NCBI GenBank assembly: GCA_034439575.1
Contig: JAWXAQ010000023.1
Coordinates: 1 to 10,490 of the forward strand
Length of the DNA: 10,490 nt
DNA from: Leptospira sp.
GTDB lineage: Bacteria; Spirochaetota; Leptospiria; Leptospirales; Leptospiraceae
Direction: 5' to 3'
Each line of letters starts with the position of its first letter. Position 1 is the first letter of the stretch. The notes beneath the pieces were generated by a model, which ran no database searches, was not told the DNA's origin, and saw only the letters and a list, made by a program, of their open reading frames with translations. Position numbers and translations under genes: made by a program. Positions 993-10,490 of the stretch are shown here, piece by piece.

Positions 993-1406
993 CTAATTTT
1001 TATTCATGGATCGAATCGGAAATTGATTCACGATTTGTTGGAAACTATCGGAAATCTCCAGACAATCAGAATTGCCAATGTGAAAGTCAAAAATCATGTT
1101 TGGTGAATCAATTGGAAATGGAACTATTGATTTATCAAGTTGTATCCTAAGATTTTTCTTTGTTTTAGTTGAGTTCTCCTTTAATTTGAAAAAATAAAAT
1201 GTATTCTCCAAGTTAAAAATTTTTGAACCAGTGGGAAGTCTAGGGAAATCAAAAAACCATCTCGAAAAATCTAAGCATTCCCAAGTTAAGAATAGAGGAT
1301 CTACTCTTGAAGATGCATTCCCATCGATTTGGAAATACAATTCAAAAAGCAACCAGTTGTCGTCATAATAGGAATCATTTTCGCCTGAGAACTGATAGCC
1401 GATCAC
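993..1406 (-). CDS. Hypothetical protein, possibly WapI-like immunity protein; probably N-terminally disrupted
   Basis: 137-aa ORF from GTG with GYQF...YDDNWLL and DPLFLTWE motifs. An in-frame ATG at 1454 is separated from it by a TAA at 1433-1431 (MIFFLAK*QNLIIKSKVIGYQF). The family call is tentative. Confidence 0.6.
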   Translation of the reverse strand: MIGYQFSGENDSYYDDNWLLFELYFQIDGNASSRVDPLFLTWECLDFSRWFFDFPRLPTGSKIFNLENTFYFFKLKENSTKTKKNLRIQLDKSIVPFPIDSPNMIFDFHIGNSDCLEISDSFQQIVNQFPIRSMNKN

Positions 1407-2093: not shown

Positions 2094-2504
2094 TCAATTC
2101 GCAGGTAATACTTGTAATTCACGTATAACGGAGATGAGATGATCTTTCTTCCAAGGCTTTGTGATGACATGATCTACTCGGCCAACTCTTTTCGCACGGT
2201 CTAAAGAAACTGGATCTACTTGGCCAGTGAGAAGGATTTTCTTAATATTTGGGAAATTGAGTTGAAGGTGAATCATAAATTCATCGCCTTTCATACCAGG
2301 CATTAACCAATCACTAACGACGATCACAATAGAGTTGTTAGCGTCTTCCGTATCATCAATGATATCTATGGCTTCGGCAGCCGATTGTGCTGTTTCATAT
2401 ATAAAATTATTTCCGAAGGAATTACGAAGTTGTTCCTTTAAACTTTCAAGAACAGACTCCTCATCGTCTACGCAGAGAAAAATACATTTTTGGTCTGTGT
2501 TCAA
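2094..2504 (-). CDS. Single-domain response regulator (CheY-like REC)
   Basis: Acidic pocket VDDE, phosphoacceptor in VVSDWLMPGMKG, LLTG and the conserved KP (ITKPW). TTG start overlaps the kinase TGA. Confidence 0.93.
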   Translation of the reverse strand: MNTDQKCIFLCVDDEESVLESLKEQLRNSFGNNFIYETAQSAAEAIDIIDDTEDANNSIVIVVSDWLMPGMKGDEFMIHLQLNFPNIKKILLTGQVDPVSLDRAKRVGRVDHVITKPWKKDHLISVIRELQVLPAN

Positions 2505-4447
2505 ATCGGTAGCCTCACGATGAAGGTGGTACCAATACCAACCTCTGAATGAAAGTAAATTTCTCCCTGATGCTTTTCAATGATTTTTTTTACGATTCCA
2601 AGTCCCAAGCCTGTTCCCTCGCCTCTCATTTTCGTAGTAAAAAAGGGATCAAAAACTTTCTCTTTATCCTCTTCCTTAATTCCTTTGCCTGTATCTCGAA
2701 ACAAAATCTTTACAAAGTTAGGTTCTGCTTCCTTTGTAATCTCGATATAGATTTCCCCCTTACCTTCGATAGCTTGCACAGAATTGTGAATCAAATTGGT
2801 CCATACTTGGCTCAATTCATCTGGATAAGATTTGATCGTTCCTAAATAATTGAAATTCTTTATGATCTCAATTCCTTCTTTTAATAAACTTTTATAGATG
2901 ATAAGAACTGTCTCAATATTCTCCGCTAAACTAATTTCTAACTTTTCGCCTGTTAAATCCTGATGAGAATAATTTTTCAAAGCATATACAATCTTCGAGG
3001 CACGATCCACAGAATTTTCTATGTTCCTTGCATTGCTTTGCAATCTAGAAATTTTATATATATATTCGATAGACTCTTCACCGCCAACTTCTTGTAAGAT
3101 GGAAATCCATTTATCTAGGGCAATTGGTAAATCAATATCCAATAGCAAATCCGCGAAATGTTCTGAATTTTTTATTTCAGCCTTTAGCAATAGTTCTGCT
3201 ATCTCTTTCTTTCGTTGCCTACGCTCTCTACTTGTTAAATACGTTTGTTTTGAGTCATAAGGATTGGCATTTGAAATTATATCATTTACAATTTTTTTAG
3301 CACTATTTGGCAAAGTATTCGTAGGAAATGCTAACACATAGGTGATTGCATCTTCTACATTGGATATCGCGGTCCGAATCGATCCAAGAGGTGTATTGAT
3401 TTCATGGGCGATTCCAGCAACTAACTGACCTAGTGTGGACATTTTTTCTGACTGTATGAGTTGTGCTTCTGCCGCTTTCAAATCTTCCAAAGCCTGAGAA
3501 AGATCAGAGTTTGATTTAGAAAGATTTTGGTTGGATAAATTTAAATCTTGGATAAGGAATGAGATTTTTTCTTTTAGAATGCGAAAGGCCGAGGCCAAGC
3601 TCCCAATTTCATCCTTTGACTCATAAGTGATAGGCACTTCCCAATTTTGATTTCCGATCTCGTGTGCTACGTCCGTCAAACCATAAATTGGCGAACTTAC
3701 TTTTTCGCGAATCACGATATAGGAAAATGTTAAAGAAACAATAAGGGTTATGATCACAAAAAACATTGCTGAAATCAAATAAACACTGTATCGTTCGAAG
3801 GCTCTAACATTTTCATTTGTACGTTTTTCAAGTAGTTGGAAGAATTCATCTATAGGTCGCATGATTTCTCTTTTGTAATTATGATACTCAATGCCATGCA
3901 TTATAGAAATCGCATATTCTCTATTTGGTTTCCCCCGAATTGTGAAATTACCTTTCGCATCTTTGAAATTACCTTTTACGGCATTCATGGCAATATTTTC
4001 TAAATTTACTAATTCATCAGAATTGAATTGAGCTTTTTTTAATTTCTCAAATTCATCTTGTGTGAATCCGGCTTCGATCATTCTTGATTGCAGTGAATTT
4101 TTTGAACCAGCCTCTTCCTTTTTATCTGAAGGATAAATTACAAAATCCCAATAGATCCTATCATAGTTTTCTGGCCGAGTTTTTTCCCCATTGCGAATAG
4201 CCAATATTTCATTAAAGATTTTTTCGTAAAAATCATTTCCCGTGACAACATATGTTCGCGCAAACCGTGTTAGGTCATCGGAACTTTGCCTAAGTTCATC
4301 AGCCAGTTTGATCGATTTTAATCTTGTTTCTTGACTTTCAGCTAGGAAAGACTGAACTTTAAAGAGAGTAATCGCAAGTATTCCGAGTATAATTAATAAT
4401 ATGATATTAACAGAAAATATTAAATAAAATAAACGCTTTAGGCTCAT
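2501..4447 (-). CDS. Membrane-bound sensor histidine kinase (TM-extracytoplasmic sensor-TM-HAMP-HisKA-HATPase)
   Basis: Two hydrophobic TM segments, HAMP (DEIGSLASAF), H-box AGIAHEINTPL, N-box QVWTNLIHNS, G1 DTGKGI, F-box FDPFFTTK and G2 GTGLGL. Confidence 0.95.
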   Translation of the reverse strand: MSLKRLFYLIFSVNIILLIILGILAITLFKVQSFLAESQETRLKSIKLADELRQSSDDLTRFARTYVVTGNDFYEKIFNEILAIRNGEKTRPENYDRIYWDFVIYPSDKKEEAGSKNSLQSRMIEAGFTQDEFEKLKKAQFNSDELVNLENIAMNAVKGNFKDAKGNFTIRGKPNREYAISIMHGIEYHNYKREIMRPIDEFFQLLEKRTNENVRAFERYSVYLISAMFFVIITLIVSLTFSYIVIREKVSSPIYGLTDVAHEIGNQNWEVPITYESKDEIGSLASAFRILKEKISFLIQDLNLSNQNLSKSNSDLSQALEDLKAAEAQLIQSEKMSTLGQLVAGIAHEINTPLGSIRTAISNVEDAITYVLAFPTNTLPNSAKKIVNDIISNANPYDSKQTYLTSRERRQRKKEIAELLLKAEIKNSEHFADLLLDIDLPIALDKWISILQEVGGEESIEYIYKISRLQSNARNIENSVDRASKIVYALKNYSHQDLTGEKLEISLAENIETVLIIYKSLLKEGIEIIKNFNYLGTIKSYPDELSQVWTNLIHNSVQAIEGKGEIYIEITKEAEPNFVKILFRDTGKGIKEEDKEKVFDPFFTTKMRGEGTGLGLGIVKKIIEKHQGEIYFHSEVGIGTTFIVRLPI

Positions 4448-4450
4448 GTT

Positions 4451-5710
4451 TCACCGATTCGTTGTTAGATCTACAGAGACCAAACATATATCATCATTCA
4501 ATACTGAATCTTGCAAAAAGTTCATCATATCCGAAAAGATTCCAGCTACTAATTTCTCACTTGTCTCAGTACGATTTTCCATAAGATAATCATGAAGTAG
4601 ATCTTCATAAAACTGTAGACCTTTTTGTTCCGAACAGGCCTCGATGAGTCCATCTGTAAAAAACAATATTCGTGAACTTCCAGTTAGATTGACAATTTCA
4701 CTTTTATAATCTGAATTTTTTTGTGCCAGTGTAACTGAACTTAGAATTCCAAGTGGTTTTCGTTTGTGCTGAAGTTTAAGTTCTCTTACATGATCCATAG
4801 TAAAAACATAAGGAAATGGATGTCCCGCATGTGCACAATTCATTTCACTTTTTTCAAAATCGATAACTGCGTATAGAGCTGTCACAAAACGACCGTCAGA
4901 ATAGGAGAGAATGATATCATTGAGGATGGTTAACAACTGGGAAGGATCATTTAGTATCTCTTCTGACATTTGGTGTAAGGCGCTCTTGATAATGGCAGTT
5001 ATGAAGGCTGAAGCAACTCCATGTCCTGCCACATCACTGATAAAAATTCCGATTTTGTTTTTATCTTTGAAATGCAAAATATCAAAAAAATCCCCACCCA
5101 CTTTATCCAAAGGCAAATAAAGAGTGGATATAAATTTTTGGCTCTCTTTATGAGGTAACATCGAATTTTGAATTCGTGCAGCGAGTGTTAAATCTTTTCT
5201 CATCATCATATTTTGGCTGAGAATTTCTTTTGATTTTTGTGCCAGATCTTTTTGGATCAGTTTTTTTTCGGATACATCCATGACTGTGAATCGGATCAGA
5301 ATTTCTTCTCCAGGTGCCGATACAATCTTTCCTGAGAGATAAACATCAAGAAAATTGTCGTCCTTTTTTCTTAAAGATACCTCTAGATTGTTAGTTGTTC
5401 CTCCTTTGAGTATAGATTCAAATCCTAAGTCAAAAGCTTGGATATAATTTTCTCCAACGAGTTTTCGAAATTCCGAGTAAGCATTTAGCTCTTTGCGTGT
5501 ATATCCTAGCCAATCAAGTAAAGTCACATTCGCTTTTTGAATGTTGCCTTTTTCGTTGAGATTTAGATATCCAATGGGAGAATTATTAAAGAAGTCATCT
5601 AACAGAACATTTTGGATGAGTAATTGGTATTTTAATTGGTCCAATTCTGCGCTGAGTTTGGCTATTTGTTCCAATTGTGATTCTTTTCCAACATCCGTCA
5701 TTTGCTCCAT
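4451..5710 (-). CDS. PAS-domain PP2C/SpoIIE (RsbU-like) serine phosphatase
   Basis: PAS (FNNSPIG...ANVTLLDWLGYTRKEL), linker DLTLAARIQNSMLP, and PP2C motifs VGGDFFD, SDVAGHG, FTDGL and DDICL. Confidence 0.93.
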   Translation of the reverse strand: MEQMTDVGKESQLEQIAKLSAELDQLKYQLLIQNVLLDDFFNNSPIGYLNLNEKGNIQKANVTLLDWLGYTRKELNAYSEFRKLVGENYIQAFDLGFESILKGGTTNNLEVSLRKKDDNFLDVYLSGKIVSAPGEEILIRFTVMDVSEKKLIQKDLAQKSKEILSQNMMMRKDLTLAARIQNSMLPHKESQKFISTLYLPLDKVGGDFFDILHFKDKNKIGIFISDVAGHGVASAFITAIIKSALHQMSEEILNDPSQLLTILNDIILSYSDGRFVTALYAVIDFEKSEMNCAHAGHPFPYVFTMDHVRELKLQHKRKPLGILSSVTLAQKNSDYKSEIVNLTGSSRILFFTDGLIEACSEQKGLQFYEDLLHDYLMENRTETSEKLVAGIFSDMMNFLQDSVLNDDICLVSVDLTTNR

Positions 5711-6421: not shown

Positions 6422-6685
6422 ATGTCAACTAACATATATGTAGGAAACCTTTCTTATGAAATGACAGAGAGTAAGTTAAATGAACTTTTTTCTGTTCACG
6501 GTGCAGTAACTTCTGCAAAAATTATCACTGACCAGTACACTGGCGGATCAAAAGGTTTCGGTTTTATCGAAATGAAAGAACGTAATGATGCTGATAAAGC
6601 TATTAGCGATTTAAATGGAAAAAACATCCTAAATCGCGAAATGAAAGTAAATATCGCAAAACCTAAAACGAACAACTGGAACTAA
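6422..6685 (+). CDS. RRM (RNP-1) RNA-binding protein, Rbp type
   Basis: RNP-2 IYVGNL, RNP-1 KGFGFIEM, SD GAGGA at 6411-6415. Confidence 0.95.
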   Translation: MSTNIYVGNLSYEMTESKLNELFSVHGAVTSAKIITDQYTGGSKGFGFIEMKERNDADKAISDLNGKNILNREMKVNIAKPKTNNWN

Positions 6686-6697
6686 ATTCCAAAAAAT

Positions 6698-6736
6698 AAT
6701 TTCAGTTTTTGGAAATAAATTCCAGAAACTGAAATT
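6698..6736 (+). terminator. Long hairpin after the RRM gene (probable terminator)
   Basis: 17-bp stem AATTTCAGTTTTTGGAA/TTCCAGAAACTGAAATT (one G-U) with a 5-nt loop. The T-tract is weak. Confidence 0.6.
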
Positions 6737-6996
6737 CTATTCAGCCGAAGGCGATTGATTAAAATCAGTTCCTAACTCGCAATCATCTCATTTCATATTT
6801 CCCACTTCAATCAAATTCTCCGCATTATCTGAGTCCGAAATTTTTCATAGCTAAGAATTAATATTTGAATGGTCGGATGAATCTTTTCTTTTACTAATTA
6901 TAGTTTTTTTCTAGTTTAAATCAAAGTTTCATATAACAAGAAAAGATATTGTTTAAAAAGTATCACTAAACAATGTTTATGTGAAATGGTCCAAAA

Positions 6997-7248
6997 ATGT
7001 TGGATGAAACTATATTTCTCTCTATTGAGGTTGTAATTCTTATACACAAAAACCAAATCGAACACTATGACGGGGCAACTAATATTCGTGATTTAGGTCT
7101 TCTTGAATCAGCAATTAACCAACCAATGACTACTTTTGACGGGATCAGTTTACACACTTCTCTTTTCGATAAAGCAGCTGCCTATTTATATTACTTATGC
7201 AAAATAATCAAATGGTGTTTCTCAAAAAATCTTGTTTTCCTAATCTAA
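6997..7248 (+). pseudogene. doc: Truncated death-on-curing (Doc/Fic family) toxin
   Basis: Typical Doc N-terminus (FLSIEVVILIH...IRDLGLLESAINQP...LFDKAAAYLYYLCK). The HxFxDGNKR motif expected next is absent, replaced by IIKWCFSKNLVFLI*. Only 83 aa. Confidence 0.8.
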
Positions 7249-7383
7249 ATCCAACAAAACTAACTTTAATTAAACATTTTACACTTTGAATAAATCAAAA
7301 ACCTAATTATTATTAATTATTTTAGGGCAGTAGTAAGAATAATATCTTGAAATTCCTGTTTTTAAAATCAAAGGTGGAGAAAA

Positions 7384-8676
7384 TTGAAAATAGGATCATT
7401 GAATCGGATGGAGCATAATCTAGAAATTCCGGATGTAATCGTTCTGGATAAGTCGTACACTCGGGCATATCTTCCAGAAGATTCCTTTGTTTCAAATCTG
7501 CGCAGAGCACTACCGCGAGAAATTTCGATTGATCATTTTGAAAATTCCTTAAAATCAAAGATTAAGGATATTGAATATAGTTTTTTACAAAATTATTACG
7601 ACCGTAGAAACGGAGCCAAAGGAGAAGCTTATATTCTACGAACTATTCCGCAAAGGATACGAGTCGATATCGCTGAATCATTTTTATCTCAAGATTCACT
7701 GACTGAAGAGGATAAGGAATATCTATCCAAATATTATGAATTGGATAAAACTTTAGATCGATATATACTTCGCCATACGATAACAGAAGCAGATGAAATC
7801 AAGATGTTAAAAATGTTTAACATGAAAAGTCTGCATATAAATAATGTTCAGAAAGCAATGATATCTGAAATACTTGAAACAATAGAAGAGATTGAGAAGA
7901 AAATGATATTTTTTGCAAATCTTTACACTCATCCTTCTCATAAATTTTTTTCTCCCCCGAATCTTAAACATGTCTCTGGGATGCAGATAACAGAAGCCGC
8001 TCGCCAATTTGCAATTGCGATTTGCCATAAGTATGGTCATGTTCCTTTTGAAGGAGTTACCTTCCTCTTACAATCGTTAAAGAGTGAATTTTTTCAATAT
8101 GCCAAAGTGAATATGCCAATTAAGATGAGAGCAATTGCCAAGGATGTAAAAGTAACTAAAGATAAAAGTTGGAATTTTGTTGATATGGAGATTACCGTAT
8201 ATCAAGAAAATGTGGAAATAAGTAAAGTCTCTACAATTGCTACAATCCTTCCGCTAAAAGTTTATAAACGATTGAAGTCTGGCCAACAAGAAGTTTATGA
8301 AATCGATCCTCGTTTCCGTCCAAGTGAAAGATTTCGAAACAATATCTCTATTCGATATAAGGATGAAGACCAGATCAAAAAATGGGTTTGTCATATTGAA
8401 AATTTTTCAGAAGGCGGATTTATGGTGAAGGCGGAAGGTTCACTTCCCCCTAAACAATTTTCTGACAATGAAAGTTTAGAATTTTTTATGCATTTTGATA
8501 TCGCTGGATTTGTTCATGGTAAGTGTAGAAATACTTGGACTAAGGTGGAAAGGGAAGAGGAAGATACGTTTCTCGCGGGCTTTTCAATCATTGAGATGAC
8601 AAATGTAGATAAGGACAATTTAAAAGAAGCCATAGGTCGGTTTGGTCGATTGATCGAAGAAAGAGATATCTATTGA
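7384..8676 (+). CDS. AfsA-related hotdog-domain protein (A-factor/butyrolactone synthase family) with C-terminal PilZ-like domain
   Basis: AfsA-type signature HKFF...HVSGMQITEAARQ...HKYGHVP (EAARQ at 7993-8007). PilZ motifs RxxxR (RPSER, 8317-8331) and NxSxGG (NFSEGG, 8401-8418). TTG start follows GGAG; alternative ATG at 7408. Confidence 0.85.
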   Translation: MKIGSLNRMEHNLEIPDVIVLDKSYTRAYLPEDSFVSNLRRALPREISIDHFENSLKSKIKDIEYSFLQNYYDRRNGAKGEAYILRTIPQRIRVDIAESFLSQDSLTEEDKEYLSKYYELDKTLDRYILRHTITEADEIKMLKMFNMKSLHINNVQKAMISEILETIEEIEKKMIFFANLYTHPSHKFFSPPNLKHVSGMQITEAARQFAIAICHKYGHVPFEGVTFLLQSLKSEFFQYAKVNMPIKMRAIAKDVKVTKDKSWNFVDMEITVYQENVEISKVSTIATILPLKVYKRLKSGQQEVYEIDPRFRPSERFRNNISIRYKDEDQIKKWVCHIENFSEGGFMVKAEGSLPPKQFSDNESLEFFMHFDIAGFVHGKCRNTWTKVEREEEDTFLAGFSIIEMTNVDKDNLKEAIGRFGRLIEERDIY

Positions 8677-9377
8677 TGGAAATCAAATCCCATCCGATAA
8701 GATATATCTTTTTACATTTTGATGGCGTTGTACTTCAAAACATCCTGGCACCTATCACATATTCCGTGATCAAAAAATTGGGCGGAACCTATTCGGCCGA
8801 GATAGAAAATAATATTTTTGCAAAATCTCAAACGCATGCCGCAAATTTTATCATCAATCATTTAAAATTGGATTTATCAGTCCAAGATGTGATAAATTTA
8901 TATTATGCAGAACGAAAACTTTTTGAAGAGACTCATACAATCAAATTCAATATTGGAGTCAAGAATTTCCTAACATTACTCAAAGATTTGGGTTATAAAG
9001 TGATTTCATATGGCGGGGCACCGAAGGAATATTTTTTGAATCATGTGAAAGATTTGTCTCCCTTTTTTAGTCATGATAAATACATTCAGACGAGAGAGTT
9101 TCGACCCGGAGTCAAAGAAATTGTATTTCAAATGTTTGGACTTAAACCAATGGAAGCATTATTTATAGATGAAGAGTTTAACATCGCTCTGGCGGCAAAG
9201 AATATGCAAGTACCATTTATCGGTATTTCTACTGGTTATGATTATAGCTTTCAAAAATCGGAAATGAAAAAACTTGGTGTGAAATATATAATTGATTCAT
9301 TGGAAGAGATGGATGCTCAATTTTTAACGCGCATTCAAAAAGATGTCTCAGATAGTTGTATTTGGAATGAACGATAA
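8676..9377 (+). CDS. HAD-superfamily hydrolase/phosphatase-like protein
   Basis: Motif I-like FLHFDGVV, helical cap, GVKNFLTLLK, motif IV-like ALFIDEE. ATG at 8676 overlaps the upstream TGA (TGATG); the ORF track starts at TTG 8673. Confidence 0.8.
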   Translation: MEIKSHPIRYIFLHFDGVVLQNILAPITYSVIKKLGGTYSAEIENNIFAKSQTHAANFIINHLKLDLSVQDVINLYYAERKLFEETHTIKFNIGVKNFLTLLKDLGYKVISYGGAPKEYFLNHVKDLSPFFSHDKYIQTREFRPGVKEIVFQMFGLKPMEALFIDEEFNIALAAKNMQVPFIGISTGYDYSFQKSEMKKLGVKYIIDSLEEMDAQFLTRIQKDVSDSCIWNER

Positions 9378-9398
9378 AATAAGGCTTAGTTAATTTAT

Positions 9399-10169
9399 AT
9401 GAACGAATTCAAAAATCAAAATATACTAATCACAGGTGGAACGAGTGGAATGGGGCTTGTGACTGCAGGACTCTTCGCATCAGAAGGTGCCAATGTCTTT
9501 ATATCTGGACGCAGTTTAGAGCAAGGAAATGAAGCCCTTCGTTCATTAAAACAGTATGATGGGCGAAATCAATACATTCAATGTGATGTGACGAATCAAA
9601 TGGAAGTTCGATCCATGATTGATTATATTGTGAAAGAAGTTGGTGGGCTAGATATCGCGGTAAACAATGCAGGCATTACTTCAAAAGCCCATTTGCCTCT
9701 GGCCGAATTTGAAGAAGATGAATGGAAAAATATAATCAATGTTAATTTGAATGGACTTTTCTATTGTATGAAATATGAAATCTCCACAATGCTTACGAAG
9801 GGCAAGGGAATCATTGTGAATAATAGTTCTGTCGCGGGACTTGTATCTATGCCGAGCCAGGCTGCTTATTCTGCGAGTAAATCTGCAGTCATTGCATTGA
9901 CTGAATCGGCCGCCATTGATTATGCACAAAAAAACATTCGTATCAACGCCATTGCTCCTGGACCTGTGATGGGGGGCATGAATAGCACAGAAAGATTAAA
10001 TGCAAATCCAGAAAGGACTGCCAAGAAGCTGAACTTAACTGCCATGCATCGATTTGGTGAGCCTATGGAAATTGCGAATGCCATTGTTTGGTTATGTTCC
10101 GAAAAATCATCCTTTGTGACTGGAGCGACAATCGCTGTGGATGGTGGATTTACTGCGGGAAAATGGTAA
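9399..10169 (+). CDS. Classical short-chain dehydrogenase/reductase (SDR)
   Basis: TGGTSGMG nucleotide-binding motif, NNAG, catalytic Ser (NSS) and YSASK, IRINAIAPG, VDGG. Confidence 0.95.
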   Translation: MNEFKNQNILITGGTSGMGLVTAGLFASEGANVFISGRSLEQGNEALRSLKQYDGRNQYIQCDVTNQMEVRSMIDYIVKEVGGLDIAVNNAGITSKAHLPLAEFEEDEWKNIINVNLNGLFYCMKYEISTMLTKGKGIIVNNSSVAGLVSMPSQAAYSASKSAVIALTESAAIDYAQKNIRINAIAPGPVMGGMNSTERLNANPERTAKKLNLTAMHRFGEPMEIANAIVWLCSEKSSFVTGATIAVDGGFTAGKW

Positions 10170-10237
10170 TCATTTACGTATTTTGTTTTACAATTTCAAT
10201 TTTTTAAGAAGCATATGACCTTTTAGGAGGTAAATCT

Positions 10238-10490
10238 ATGCTTGCTTTTGGAGGATGCGAAAGGCTTGAACCAGTTCACGCAGGCGAAAGAAATACGATT
10301 TATCGCGGTTTCAAAAATGGAAATCCGATCATACTCAAAGTCCTTCAGAAAGAATACCCAACAATCACTGAATTAGAAAATTTCACATTAGAATATAATT
10401 TATTACGCAATTTTAATTCTACTCGCATCATATCTCCGATATCAATTGAAAAAATAAATAATACACTCGGCATTATTTTCAAAGACATAG
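10238..10490 (+). CDS. Ser/Thr protein kinase N-terminus (partial), of the type found in large kinase-AAA ATPase-sensor hybrids
   Basis: SD AGGAGG at 10225-10230 and ATG at 10238. Frame is open to the window end: MLAFGGCERLEPVHAGERNTIYRGFKNGNPIILKVLQKEYPTITELENFTLEYNLLRNFNSTRIISPISIEKNNNTLGIIFKDI (IYRG, IILK Lys, alphaC Glu). Not in the ORF track. Confidence 0.8.
   Translation, partial: MLAFGGCERLEPVHAGERNTIYRGFKNGNPIILKVLQKEYPTITELENFTLEYNLLRNFNSTRIISPISIEKINNTLGIIFKDI

Follow-up and report, generated by a model that had tools for sequence, protein, structure and literature searches.

A single-repeat AfsA-type hotdog protein with a PilZ domain in a conserved gene cluster of saprophytic Leptospira

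The window considered here is a 10,490-bp stretch of DNA from a water-dwelling Leptospira and makes up the entire contig C23 (JAWXAQ010000023.1) of a 4.1-Mb assembly. Positions 7384–10490 cover the opening four genes, all on the plus strand, of an operon-like cluster that is conserved in saprophytic Leptospira and related Spirochaetota. Gene 1 (7384–8676) encodes an AfsA-type hotdog, which is interrupted by an insertion, and a PilZ domain behind it, and is 430 residues long if translated from TTG 7384 or 422 residues long if translated from ATG 7408. Gene 2 (8673–9377, 234 residues, likely start ATG 8676) encodes a haloacid dehalogenase (HAD)-fold protein with the non-canonical motif I H15-F-D17-G-V. 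Gene 3 (9399–10169, 256 residues) encodes a classical FabG-like short-chain dehydrogenase/reductase (SDR) with the TGGTSGMG and YSASK motifs. The fourth gene starts at position 10238, is cut by the contig end at 10490, and encodes a giant protein with the domain order Pkinase-AAA_16-TPR-GAF-SpoIIE(PP2C)-TPR. In Streptomyces, antibiotic production is switched on by butyrolactone, butenolide and furan hormones, which are products of AfsA-type enzymes. An earlier note on this DNA proposed that genes 1–3 form a three-gene unit making such a signal in an AT-rich, probably spirochaetal host. The three genes are as it described, but it overlooked the conserved giant gene behind them. The host assignment has been borne out, as the window has a G+C content of 0.30–0.41 and the nearest named relatives of gene 1 come from the saprophytic L. 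ognonensis (84% identity) and L. ryugenii (77%), with further close relatives in L. kobayashii, L. idonii, L. meyeri, L. levettii and L. vanthielii.

The first three genes are tightly packed. The stop codon of gene 1 (TGA, 8674–8676) shares its A with the ATG at 8676–8678 to give TGATG; a TTG at 8673 is an alternative start of gene 2, and the overlap between the two genes is accordingly 1–4 nt. Genes 2 and 3 are separated by 21 nt (9378–9398), so the coordinates confirm the coupling claimed earlier. In a promoter and terminator scan of positions 6600–10490, no terminator-like sites were found between genes 1–3. The same scan returned 14 promoter-like sites against 16.2 expected by shuffling; the site upstream of gene 1 (TTGAAT, 16 nt, TATTAT; 7286–7313, plus strand) is thus not above chance and counts as weak evidence. 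No riboswitch was found upstream of gene 1 and no tRNA in the window, and Rfam gave no matches at the gathering threshold over the window and none at E ≤ 0.1 over positions 1–1800. Four sequencing runs contain 12 short contigs at 90–99% likeness, from libraries that are flagged as “probably DNA” and are uninformative on transcription.

The AlphaFold2 model of gene 1, built from 20 homologues, has a mean predicted local distance difference test (pLDDT) score of 84. Residues ~19–45 (7438–7518) form the N-terminal hotdog strands and carry the family consensus DKxLVHKxxxENVLI, which resembles the start of AfsA repeat 1. They are followed by the insertion domain (residues ~46–172, about 125 residues; 7519–7899), which is composed of repeated beta-hairpin/helix units and contains the conserved Tyr72 and Tyr118. 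The hotdog core (residues ~173–300; 7900–8283) contains an AfsA-type active-site helix with H186, H196, G199, E204, R207 and Q208. The PilZ domain (residues ~305–424; 8296–8655) contains the RPSER (R312–R316) and NFSEGG (N340, S342, G345) motifs and is recognized by Pfam PilZ PF07238 over residues 312–417 (28.3 bits, cut-off 22.5). Foldseek matches of the model are split between PilZ receptors (MrkH, PlzA, PP4397) and single hotdogs (FabZ, thioesterases, FapR). In VIA-align comparisons, residues 19–290 align to FabZ 1u1z with Z 14.7 (rmsd 3.0, 134 of 142 residues), while residues 305–426 align to PP4397 3kyf with Z 12.9 (rmsd 2.7, 113 residues), YcgR 5y6g with Z 12.3, MotI with Z 12.1 and MrkH with Z 11.6. 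Since residues ~19–45 and 173–300 align as one hotdog, residues ~46–172 are an insertion. On the same grounds, the N-terminal 170 residues have been rejected as a degenerate first AfsA repeat.

Residues 1–170 have no Pfam match, and a sequence search of the whole of gene 1 against the PDB gave no matches at E ≤ 1. When the insertion is folded alone from 23 sequences, it reaches a pLDDT of 90.7. A fold search with it gave a best VIA Z of 3.7, with none of 48,161 chains at Z ≥ 5, and a best Foldseek E of 0.4; Pfam gave no match to it, and the ESM Atlas gave no usable match for residues 12–172. This is a missing match and no proof of a new fold.

The AfsA assignment of gene 1 is carried by the hotdog core. 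Pfam AfsA PF03756 matches residues 175–256 in one stretch with 51.6 bits (cut-off 24, E 1.3e-13). The butyrolactone rule of antiSMASH depends on the AfsA profile and would probably be triggered by this contig. The EAARQ motif pointed out in the earlier note is present at residues 204–208 and contains the ExxR pair E204/R207, the single such pair in the chain. Conservation has been assessed in 41 diverse full-length relatives that are 19–68% identical to the window gene 1. E204, R207, P245 and Q274 are kept in all 41, H196 and Q208 in 40, and H186 in 36. Pfam assigns AfsA to 41/41 of these proteins, PilZ to 27/41 and FabA to 1/41 (E 0.0067). The comparison of AfsA with a FabZ-type hotdog that the earlier note had suggested therefore falls on the side of AfsA.

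The likeness to the Streptomyces synthases AfsA, ScbA, MmfL and SabA extends beyond the Pfam match. The H-x9-H-x2-G-x4-E-x2-R-Q spacing of the helix motif in gene 1 is the same as in Streptomyces AfsA repeat 2, and the gene 1 sequence KVYKRLKS, after the hotdog, matches KVYQRLRS at the end of AfsA repeat 1. Two active-site peptide patterns of the gene 1 family also pulled out dozens of Streptomyces AfsA loci among 77 loci. Three actinobacterial AfsA proteins from loci retrieved with the family patterns were used for the motif comparison; they share with the gene 1 family the N-terminal strand K.[FL]VH[KR]...V[LM][LI] and the motifs H..YG.VP and KVY[QK]RL[RK]S. The kinds of partner are also alike, as phosphatase-fold and SDR proteins are the partners named for SabP and SabD in the accessible text of PMC7756379. 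Gene 1 differs from the Streptomyces enzymes in having a ~125-residue insertion inside the hotdog and a PilZ domain in place of repeat 2. A family hotdog hidden Markov model finds two regions in Streptomyces AfsA proteins and one in members of the gene 1 family. The AfsA-type label given in the earlier note therefore stands on the profile match and the ExxR pair, but the single repeat, the insertion and the PilZ domain had escaped it.

A way in which a single repeat might function is suggested by a two-copy complex prediction. For residues 12–303, the prediction scored 0.59 (runs of 0.59, 0.61 and 0.56) against 0.32 for the best control, with a contact agreement of at least 100% and a partner pLDDT of at least 81. 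In calibration, 20 of 30 proteins with structures solved as pairs came up to the mark, as did 1 of 23 solved as single chains. The predicted interface is formed by the strand at residues 228–236 together with residues 199–200, 203–204 and 207. Since the geometry is that of a textbook hotdog dimer, also seen in FabZ/FabA dehydratases and 4HBT thioesterases, this result may reflect likeness to solved dimers. A homodimer of this kind would bring two ExxR pairs side by side, and is a possible, predicted way for them to meet.

The PilZ domain of gene 1 holds both cyclic di-GMP (c-di-GMP) motifs, RxxxR (R312-P-S-E-R316) and (D/N)xSxxG (N340-F-S342-E-G-G345). In 20 close relatives, R310, S342 and G345 are kept throughout, N340 in 18 and R312 in 13, and position 316 is a lysine in 10 and an arginine in 6. 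Across the 41 diverse relatives, S342 is kept in 39 and G345 in 35. Judged by these residues, c-di-GMP binding by gene 1 is plausible. The domain resembles the PilZ receptors YcgR, PP4397, MotI, MrkH and PlzA in fold, in its above-threshold Pfam match and in the presence of both motifs, but its partner domain is an AfsA hotdog and not a PilZN, glycosyltransferase or DNA-binding domain.

Gene 3 matches Pfam adh_short_C2 with 216 bits and adh_short with 182.7 bits, as expected from its earlier description as an SDR. Its scores on FabG models are high as well; PRK05653.1-3, for instance, gives 233.7 bits, which is still under the cut-off of that model. In a tree of 26 SDRs, in which the outgroups were own-genome paralogues and three second SDRs only, all 15 sequences linked to gene 1 relatives fall into a common clade, joined by just one own-genome paralogue (support 99/99). 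The five gammaproteobacterial linked SDRs group with gene 3 and its orthologue in the G024 genome with support 100/99. By this placement, the clade of gene 3 is one whose members travel with gene 1 relatives in Spirochaetota as well as in Gammaproteobacteria.

For gene 2, the nearest solved relative at motif I is the pseudouridine-5'-phosphatase HDHD1 (human and related), and NCBIfam models for phosphoglycolate phosphatase score no higher than 23 bits, with cut-offs of at least 225. Like the HAD phosphatases MmfP and SabP, gene 2 shows a HAD fold, weakly matched, and keeps D17 (the second motif I aspartate) and D166 (motif IV). An asparagine stands at the second motif IV acid. In two 644-residue proteins, P0039 and P0040, gene 1 is naturally fused to a HAD domain of the gene 2 type, which is 42–45% identical to the window gene 2. 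Because such fusions exist, gene 2 is considered a genuine partner of gene 1.

The company kept by gene 1 has been followed in three sets of loci. In 11 small loci of relatives, in which the giant gene lies outside the coverage, a gene 3-like SDR is present in all 11 and a gene 2-type HAD in 3. In eight wide, 18-kb loci, the SDR is present in 7, the HAD in 4 and the giant gene in all 8, and the order gene 1, SDR, giant gene is kept in 7. In 22 distant loci, several of which are cut by contig ends, the SDR is found in 7, the HAD in 7 and the giant gene in 6. In 6 of these 22 loci a second, canonical HAD_2 protein adjoins gene 1, and NmrA-like reductases occur in two (L022 and L024). The linkage of the trio proposed earlier therefore holds for HAD-like genes and reductases across phyla, but not as a constant set of three.

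The giant gene lies on the same strand as the rest of the cluster and encodes ~1,874–1,918 residues with Pkinase, AAA_16, TPR, GAF and SpoIIE(PP2C) domains. Further parts of the window copy are found on two other contigs of the assembly, C37 and C10, at 65–67% identity to the G024 orthologue. In two variants (L030:10167-16463, 2,098 residues; L037:9723-16037, 2,104 residues), the C-terminal PP2C domain is replaced by PAS-GGDEF-EAL.

A second module with acyl-chemistry enzymes and a giant sensor has been observed elsewhere in the same genome, on contig C15 (locus L099, C15:196000-214000, coordinates 4633–17028). Its minus strand encodes two 4HBT_2 hotdogs (149 and 281 residues), an SDR paralogue of 254 residues and a PP2C protein of 291 residues. 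The plus strand encodes a ketosynthase (KS) of 424 residues, a CoA-transferase of 584 residues, a ketoacyl synthase III (KAS III) of 327 residues and then a 1,784-residue Pkinase-AAA_16-GAF-SpoIIE paralogue. The 254-residue SDR is the paralogue that nests in the gene 1-linked SDR clade.

Gene 1 relatives have also been found in five proteobacterial loci: L038 (a Tatlockia metagenome-assembled genome, MAG), L041, L044 (Gilliamella), L047 and L048 (Serratia inhibens). In all five, a gene 1 relative of 380–408 residues is followed by an open reading frame (ORF) of ~385–406 residues and an SDR that is 42–50% identical to gene 3. In the three loci scanned with Pfam (L038, L041 and L044), the ~385–406-residue ORF is an Oxidored_FMN reductase of the Old Yellow Enzyme (OYE) type, and a second SDR and a DUF2867 protein are also present. 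L038 and L044 also have Flavodoxin_2 proteins, and transporters of the MFS or HlyD type occur in L041 and L038. These loci look like an uncharacterised small-molecule biosynthetic cluster.

The family is widespread in Spirochaetota. Among the genomes sampled, 38 of 40 from the same genus and 56 of 114 from the family carry gene 1, the source genome being counted in both. It is present in none of 22 genomes of genus g21, and in genus g22 there are weak matches to the hotdog region only in 3 of 24. A search of representative metagenome sequences gave 173 clusters (50% identity) at E ≤ 0.001, 98 at ≤ 1e-10 and 45 at ≤ 1e-30. Many of the representatives listed are full-length proteins of ~400–430 residues, and others are forms of ~300 residues without PilZ, hotdog-only forms of ~180 residues and forms at polyketide synthase (PKS) termini. 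Where the genome is named, full-length relatives come for the most part from MAGs of Leptospiraceae, Leptospirales, Spirochaetales and Brevinematales, and also from the Tatlockia MAG and a Proteobacteria MAG; the Gilliamella and Serratia inhibens forms have a diverged C-terminus. The closest gene 1 orthologue among species representatives (G093:C54:250006-251286, 84%) has one in-frame TAA inside the match, which could mean that the gene is a pseudogene, that the sequence contains an error or that the stop lies shortly before the real start codon.

Several relatives are fused to assembly-line domains. P0048 combines a TubC_N docking domain, a PP-binding acyl carrier protein (ACP), the AfsA hotdog and PilZ, and P0053 combines TubC_N with the gene 1 family unit. 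P0158 is composed of an acyltransferase (AT), an ACP and AfsA, and P0181 of an AT and AfsA, while P0159 (KS, AT, AfsA) and P0171 are KS-containing PKS modules ending in AfsA. These fusions to ACP or PKS modules point to acyl-thioester chemistry.

Precedent for such chemistry exists outside Actinobacteria. As described in the accessible sections of PMC7756379, 3-ketothioesters are condensed in vitro with dihydroxyacetone phosphate (DHAP) by the AfsA-like domain that terminates GdsF, and in those of PMC7756420 excision of the AfsA domain abolished gladiofungin production. PMC7756420 also reports that the GlaE point mutant E10080A, in which an alanine replaces a glutamate that may or may not be the one of the ExxR pair, retained the profile of the wild type. 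The gladiostatin/gladiofungin PBS chain-release domain of Burkholderia gladioli (GdsF/GlaE) is a non-actinobacterial AfsA-type domain that uses ACP-bound 3-keto thioesters and DHAP. Gene 1 relatives resemble it in being ACP-fused or at PKS C-termini (P0048, P0158, P0159, P0171, P0181), but the window gene 1 stands alone, has no ACP or PKS nearby and carries the insertion and PilZ; this comparison is by description only. PMC7756379 also states, in the same sections, that SAB butenolide biosynthesis requires SabA, the phosphatase SabP and the ketoreductase SabD, which matches the synthase, phosphatase and ketoreductase parallel that had been drawn for genes 1–3.

The literature also bears on novelty. 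Creamer et al. report AfsA Pfam matches in 12 phyla in the accessible text of PMC8209734, which contains no occurrence of Leptospira or of words starting with “Spirochaet”. AfsA-related clusters have been mentioned in Chromobacterium (PMC12114271) and Pseudomonas (PMC8719888). With these reports and the working Burkholderia domain in print, the novelty that the earlier note attached to a location outside Actinobacteria was overstated. The main texts of the Leptospira c-di-GMP surveys PMC11800159 and PMC12943098 contain no AfsA, hotdog, A-factor or butyrolactone, although their supplements may list the protein. A literature search, with supplements that may list the protein lying outside it, turned up no report of PilZ fused to AfsA or another hotdog, no work on a spirochaete counterpart of the AfsA-type enzymes and, by title or abstract, none on genes of the butyrolactone type in Leptospira. 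Published work already covers AfsA homologues from outside Actinobacteria, and it is the architecture and gene context of gene 1 that were not found in the literature searched.

Judged from its sequence and that of its relatives, gene 1 is very probably a catalytic member of the AfsA superfamily in a conserved four-gene cluster. We propose the following scheme as the likeliest account of its function. Two copies of gene 1 would pair through the hotdog sheet and bring two ExxR pairs together, as the two ScbA repeats do. The dimer would take a beta-keto-acyl group off its thioester carrier (ACP) and pass it on to a C3 acceptor that bears a phosphate, such as DHAP, and the product would cyclise to a phosphorylated butenolide-type compound. 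The gene 3 SDR would reduce a keto group, and the HAD-fold partner encoded by gene 2 may bind or process the phosphate ester. As the PilZ domain keeps both motifs, the output would probably be c-di-GMP-gated, and the small-molecule product would probably be coupled to the adjacent giant kinase/phosphatase, with the GAF domain as candidate receptor. The whole chain, an AfsA-type acyl-thioester:phospho-acceptor transferase dimer that is tailored by SDR and HAD partners, controlled by c-di-GMP and tied to the giant protein, is evenly poised between being right and being wrong. Taken singly, a butenolide-type product class falls a little short of an even chance, c-di-GMP control of gene 1 is possible and somewhat more tentative, and a role of the giant protein as receptor of the product is doubtful.

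A number of observations weigh against this scheme. Gene 1 carries one AfsA repeat and not two tandem repeats, so that it is not a double hotdog. The residues reported to be essential for ScbA come from both repeats, and the accessible text of PMC13454427 names the ExxR pairs E78/R81 and E240/R243 together with the linker residue R174; a compensating dimer of gene 1 is predicted. The ScbA/BarX equivalog NF041195 fails, with 40.8 bits against a cut-off of 200 over model positions 37–160 of 290. The consensus E/D-H-V-P-G reads K-H-V-S-G in the Leptospira clade, and K195 is found in 3/41 and S198 in 4/41 of the diverse relatives. A Pfam scan found no ene-reductase, ACP or ketosynthase gene in the window, and no TetR/ArpA/ScbR-type receptor gene among the 11 window ORFs scanned. 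The operon structure is based on gene spacing alone, and gene 2 is missing from 8 of the 11 small loci of relatives.

The same applies to parts of gene 2 and of the PilZ domain. Pfam HAD PF00702 gives 18.3 bits on gene 2, below the cut-off of 26.4. His15 of gene 2 aligns with the first motif I aspartate of DmDG in 9m7l and 3l5k (flHfDG vs ifDmDG), and a glycine occupies the motif II Ser/Thr position. The first motif I aspartate is the nucleophile of HAD enzymes. Gene 2 in the Leptospira lineage thus differs from the HAD phosphatases and is non-canonical because a histidine replaces this aspartate. His15 is found in 5/5 Leptospira-lineage sequences, whereas the canonical D-I-D-G-V is found in 6/7 distant Spirochaetota orthologues. 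Simple decay of gene 2 has been rejected, as gene 1–gene 2 fusions exist and one of them (P0040) carries the same LHFDG His variant. Going by these motifs, gene 2 in the Leptospira lineage is probably not a canonical aspartyl-phosphatase. The HAD-like label of the earlier note holds for the fold. In the PilZ domain, RxxxR is not kept family-wide, unlike in the known PilZ receptors: R312 is found in 4/41 diverse relatives, position 316 is mostly N, K or G, and gammaproteobacterial relatives have no arginine at all at the site. Because RxxxR is not conserved across the family, c-di-GMP binding cannot be the ancestral role of the domain in the PilZ position. In locus L037, moreover, the giant is of the GGDEF-EAL type and the gene 1 relative paired with it lacks PilZ.

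Four other explanations have been weighed. In the first, the hotdog is a FabZ-like dehydratase or thioesterase that works with the FabG-like SDR on a lipid or fatty-acid-derived product, with no DHAP condensation and no butenolide. The best structural matches of the gene 1 hotdog are indeed FabZ (Z 14.7 and 14.6) and thioesterases, and the FabG scores of gene 3 and the C15 locus, where 4HBT hotdogs, an SDR, a KS and KAS III stand with a paralogous giant sensor, fit this explanation. Fold matches cannot separate the hotdog families, however, because no AfsA-family structure turned up, and the accessible text of PMC13454427 states that no crystal structure exists. In sequence, gene 1 matches AfsA and has no FabZ or FabA Pfam match, and the ExxRQ motif with its invariant arginine is an AfsA hallmark. 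The conserved HAD partners and the HAD fusions point to a phosphorylated intermediate, which also argues against a dehydratase or thioesterase. This explanation is considered unlikely.

In the second, gene 1 is mainly regulatory: a c-di-GMP receptor whose hotdog senses acyl-CoA or acyl-ACP without catalysis, like FapR, and modulates the giant protein, with the SDR and HAD unrelated or accessory. The structural matches include hotdog sensor domains of FapR (4a0x, Z 12.5; 2f41, Z 12.0), a PilZ domain is what one typically finds in receptors, no neighbour within Leptospirales is as constant as the giant signalling gene, and a HATPase_c_2-STAS protein lies beside the pair in L032. A pure sensor would, on the other hand, sit poorly with the best-conserved residues, which are of the AfsA catalytic type (E204/R207 in 41/41), with the fusions of relatives to ACP and PKS modules, where a release enzyme is expected, and with the gammaproteobacterial relatives, which have no giant kinase and lie amid redox enzymes. 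We regard a mainly regulatory gene 1 as quite unlikely.

The third explanation, acquisition by Leptospira of canonical Streptomyces-type gamma-butyrolactone quorum sensing with an AfsA/ScbA orthologue and a receptor, is suggested by the AfsA match together with the HAD-like gene and the SDR. It is highly improbable, given the single repeat, the PilZ fusion, the insertion, the ScbA/BarX equivalog score far below cut-off and a window without an ArpA-type receptor, in which the giant Pkinase-AAA_16-GAF-PP2C gene lies downstream instead. The family is also old and broad in Spirochaetota, as its presence in most genomes of the genus and about half of those of the family indicates, and is therefore not a recent import. 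The interpretation given in the earlier note is, on the whole, partly supported and incomplete. That the genes are neighbours without shared function, which the uninformative promoter and terminator scans and the inconstant presence of gene 2 might suggest, can be dismissed as very improbable in view of the close spacing, the order gene 1–SDR–giant in nearly all wide loci, the natural gene 1–gene 2 fusions and the cross-phylum clade of linked SDRs.

The remainder of the window contains other genes and a repeat. Bases 1–243 recur at the contig ends C8:1-222 (95%) and C25:12032-12184 (90%), and also inside C8 and C30. As this segment recurs at other contig ends, it looks like a dispersed repeat and is probably the cause of the assembly breaks; it has no Rfam family match. 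The first kilobase is richer in G+C (0.41) and has no long ORF. A 137-residue ORF at 993–1406 (minus strand) matches the WapI-like immunity protein family PF24716 with 53.8 bits, and no toxin gene is evident beside it in the Pfam scan of the window. Three packed signalling genes at 2094–5710 (minus strand) encode a PAS-SpoIIE (PP2C) phosphatase of 419 residues, a HAMP-HisKA-HATPase histidine kinase of 648 residues and a stand-alone receiver of 136 residues. An RRM_1 RNA-binding protein of 87 residues is encoded at 6422–6685. An 83-residue ORF just upstream of gene 1 (6997–7248, plus strand) has an N-terminal Fic/DOC match only (profile positions 2–74 of 93, 31.4 bits) and is probably a truncated remnant.

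A broader possibility for the cluster is a spirochaete circuit in which a c-di-GMP-gated AfsA-type synthase makes a butenolide-like molecule that is sensed by the GAF domain of the co-encoded giant STAND-type kinase/phosphatase, with GGDEF-EAL giants feeding back on c-di-GMP in some lineages. Such a circuit is speculative and, taken as a whole, rather improbable; under it, the C15 locus would make an acyl-signal synthase plus giant sensor a repeated Leptospira module. The architecture itself, a single AfsA hotdog with an insertion that has no structural match and a PilZ domain, is new. If the proposed scheme is true, gene 1 would be an enzyme for a diffusible or lipid-like signal under direct c-di-GMP control, and would provide a first functional handle on the giant Pkinase-AAA_16-GAF-PP2C proteins, of which there are several copies per Leptospira. 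It would also reveal the way in which an AfsA hotdog functions with one repeat, a matter of relevance to the engineering of PKS chain release.

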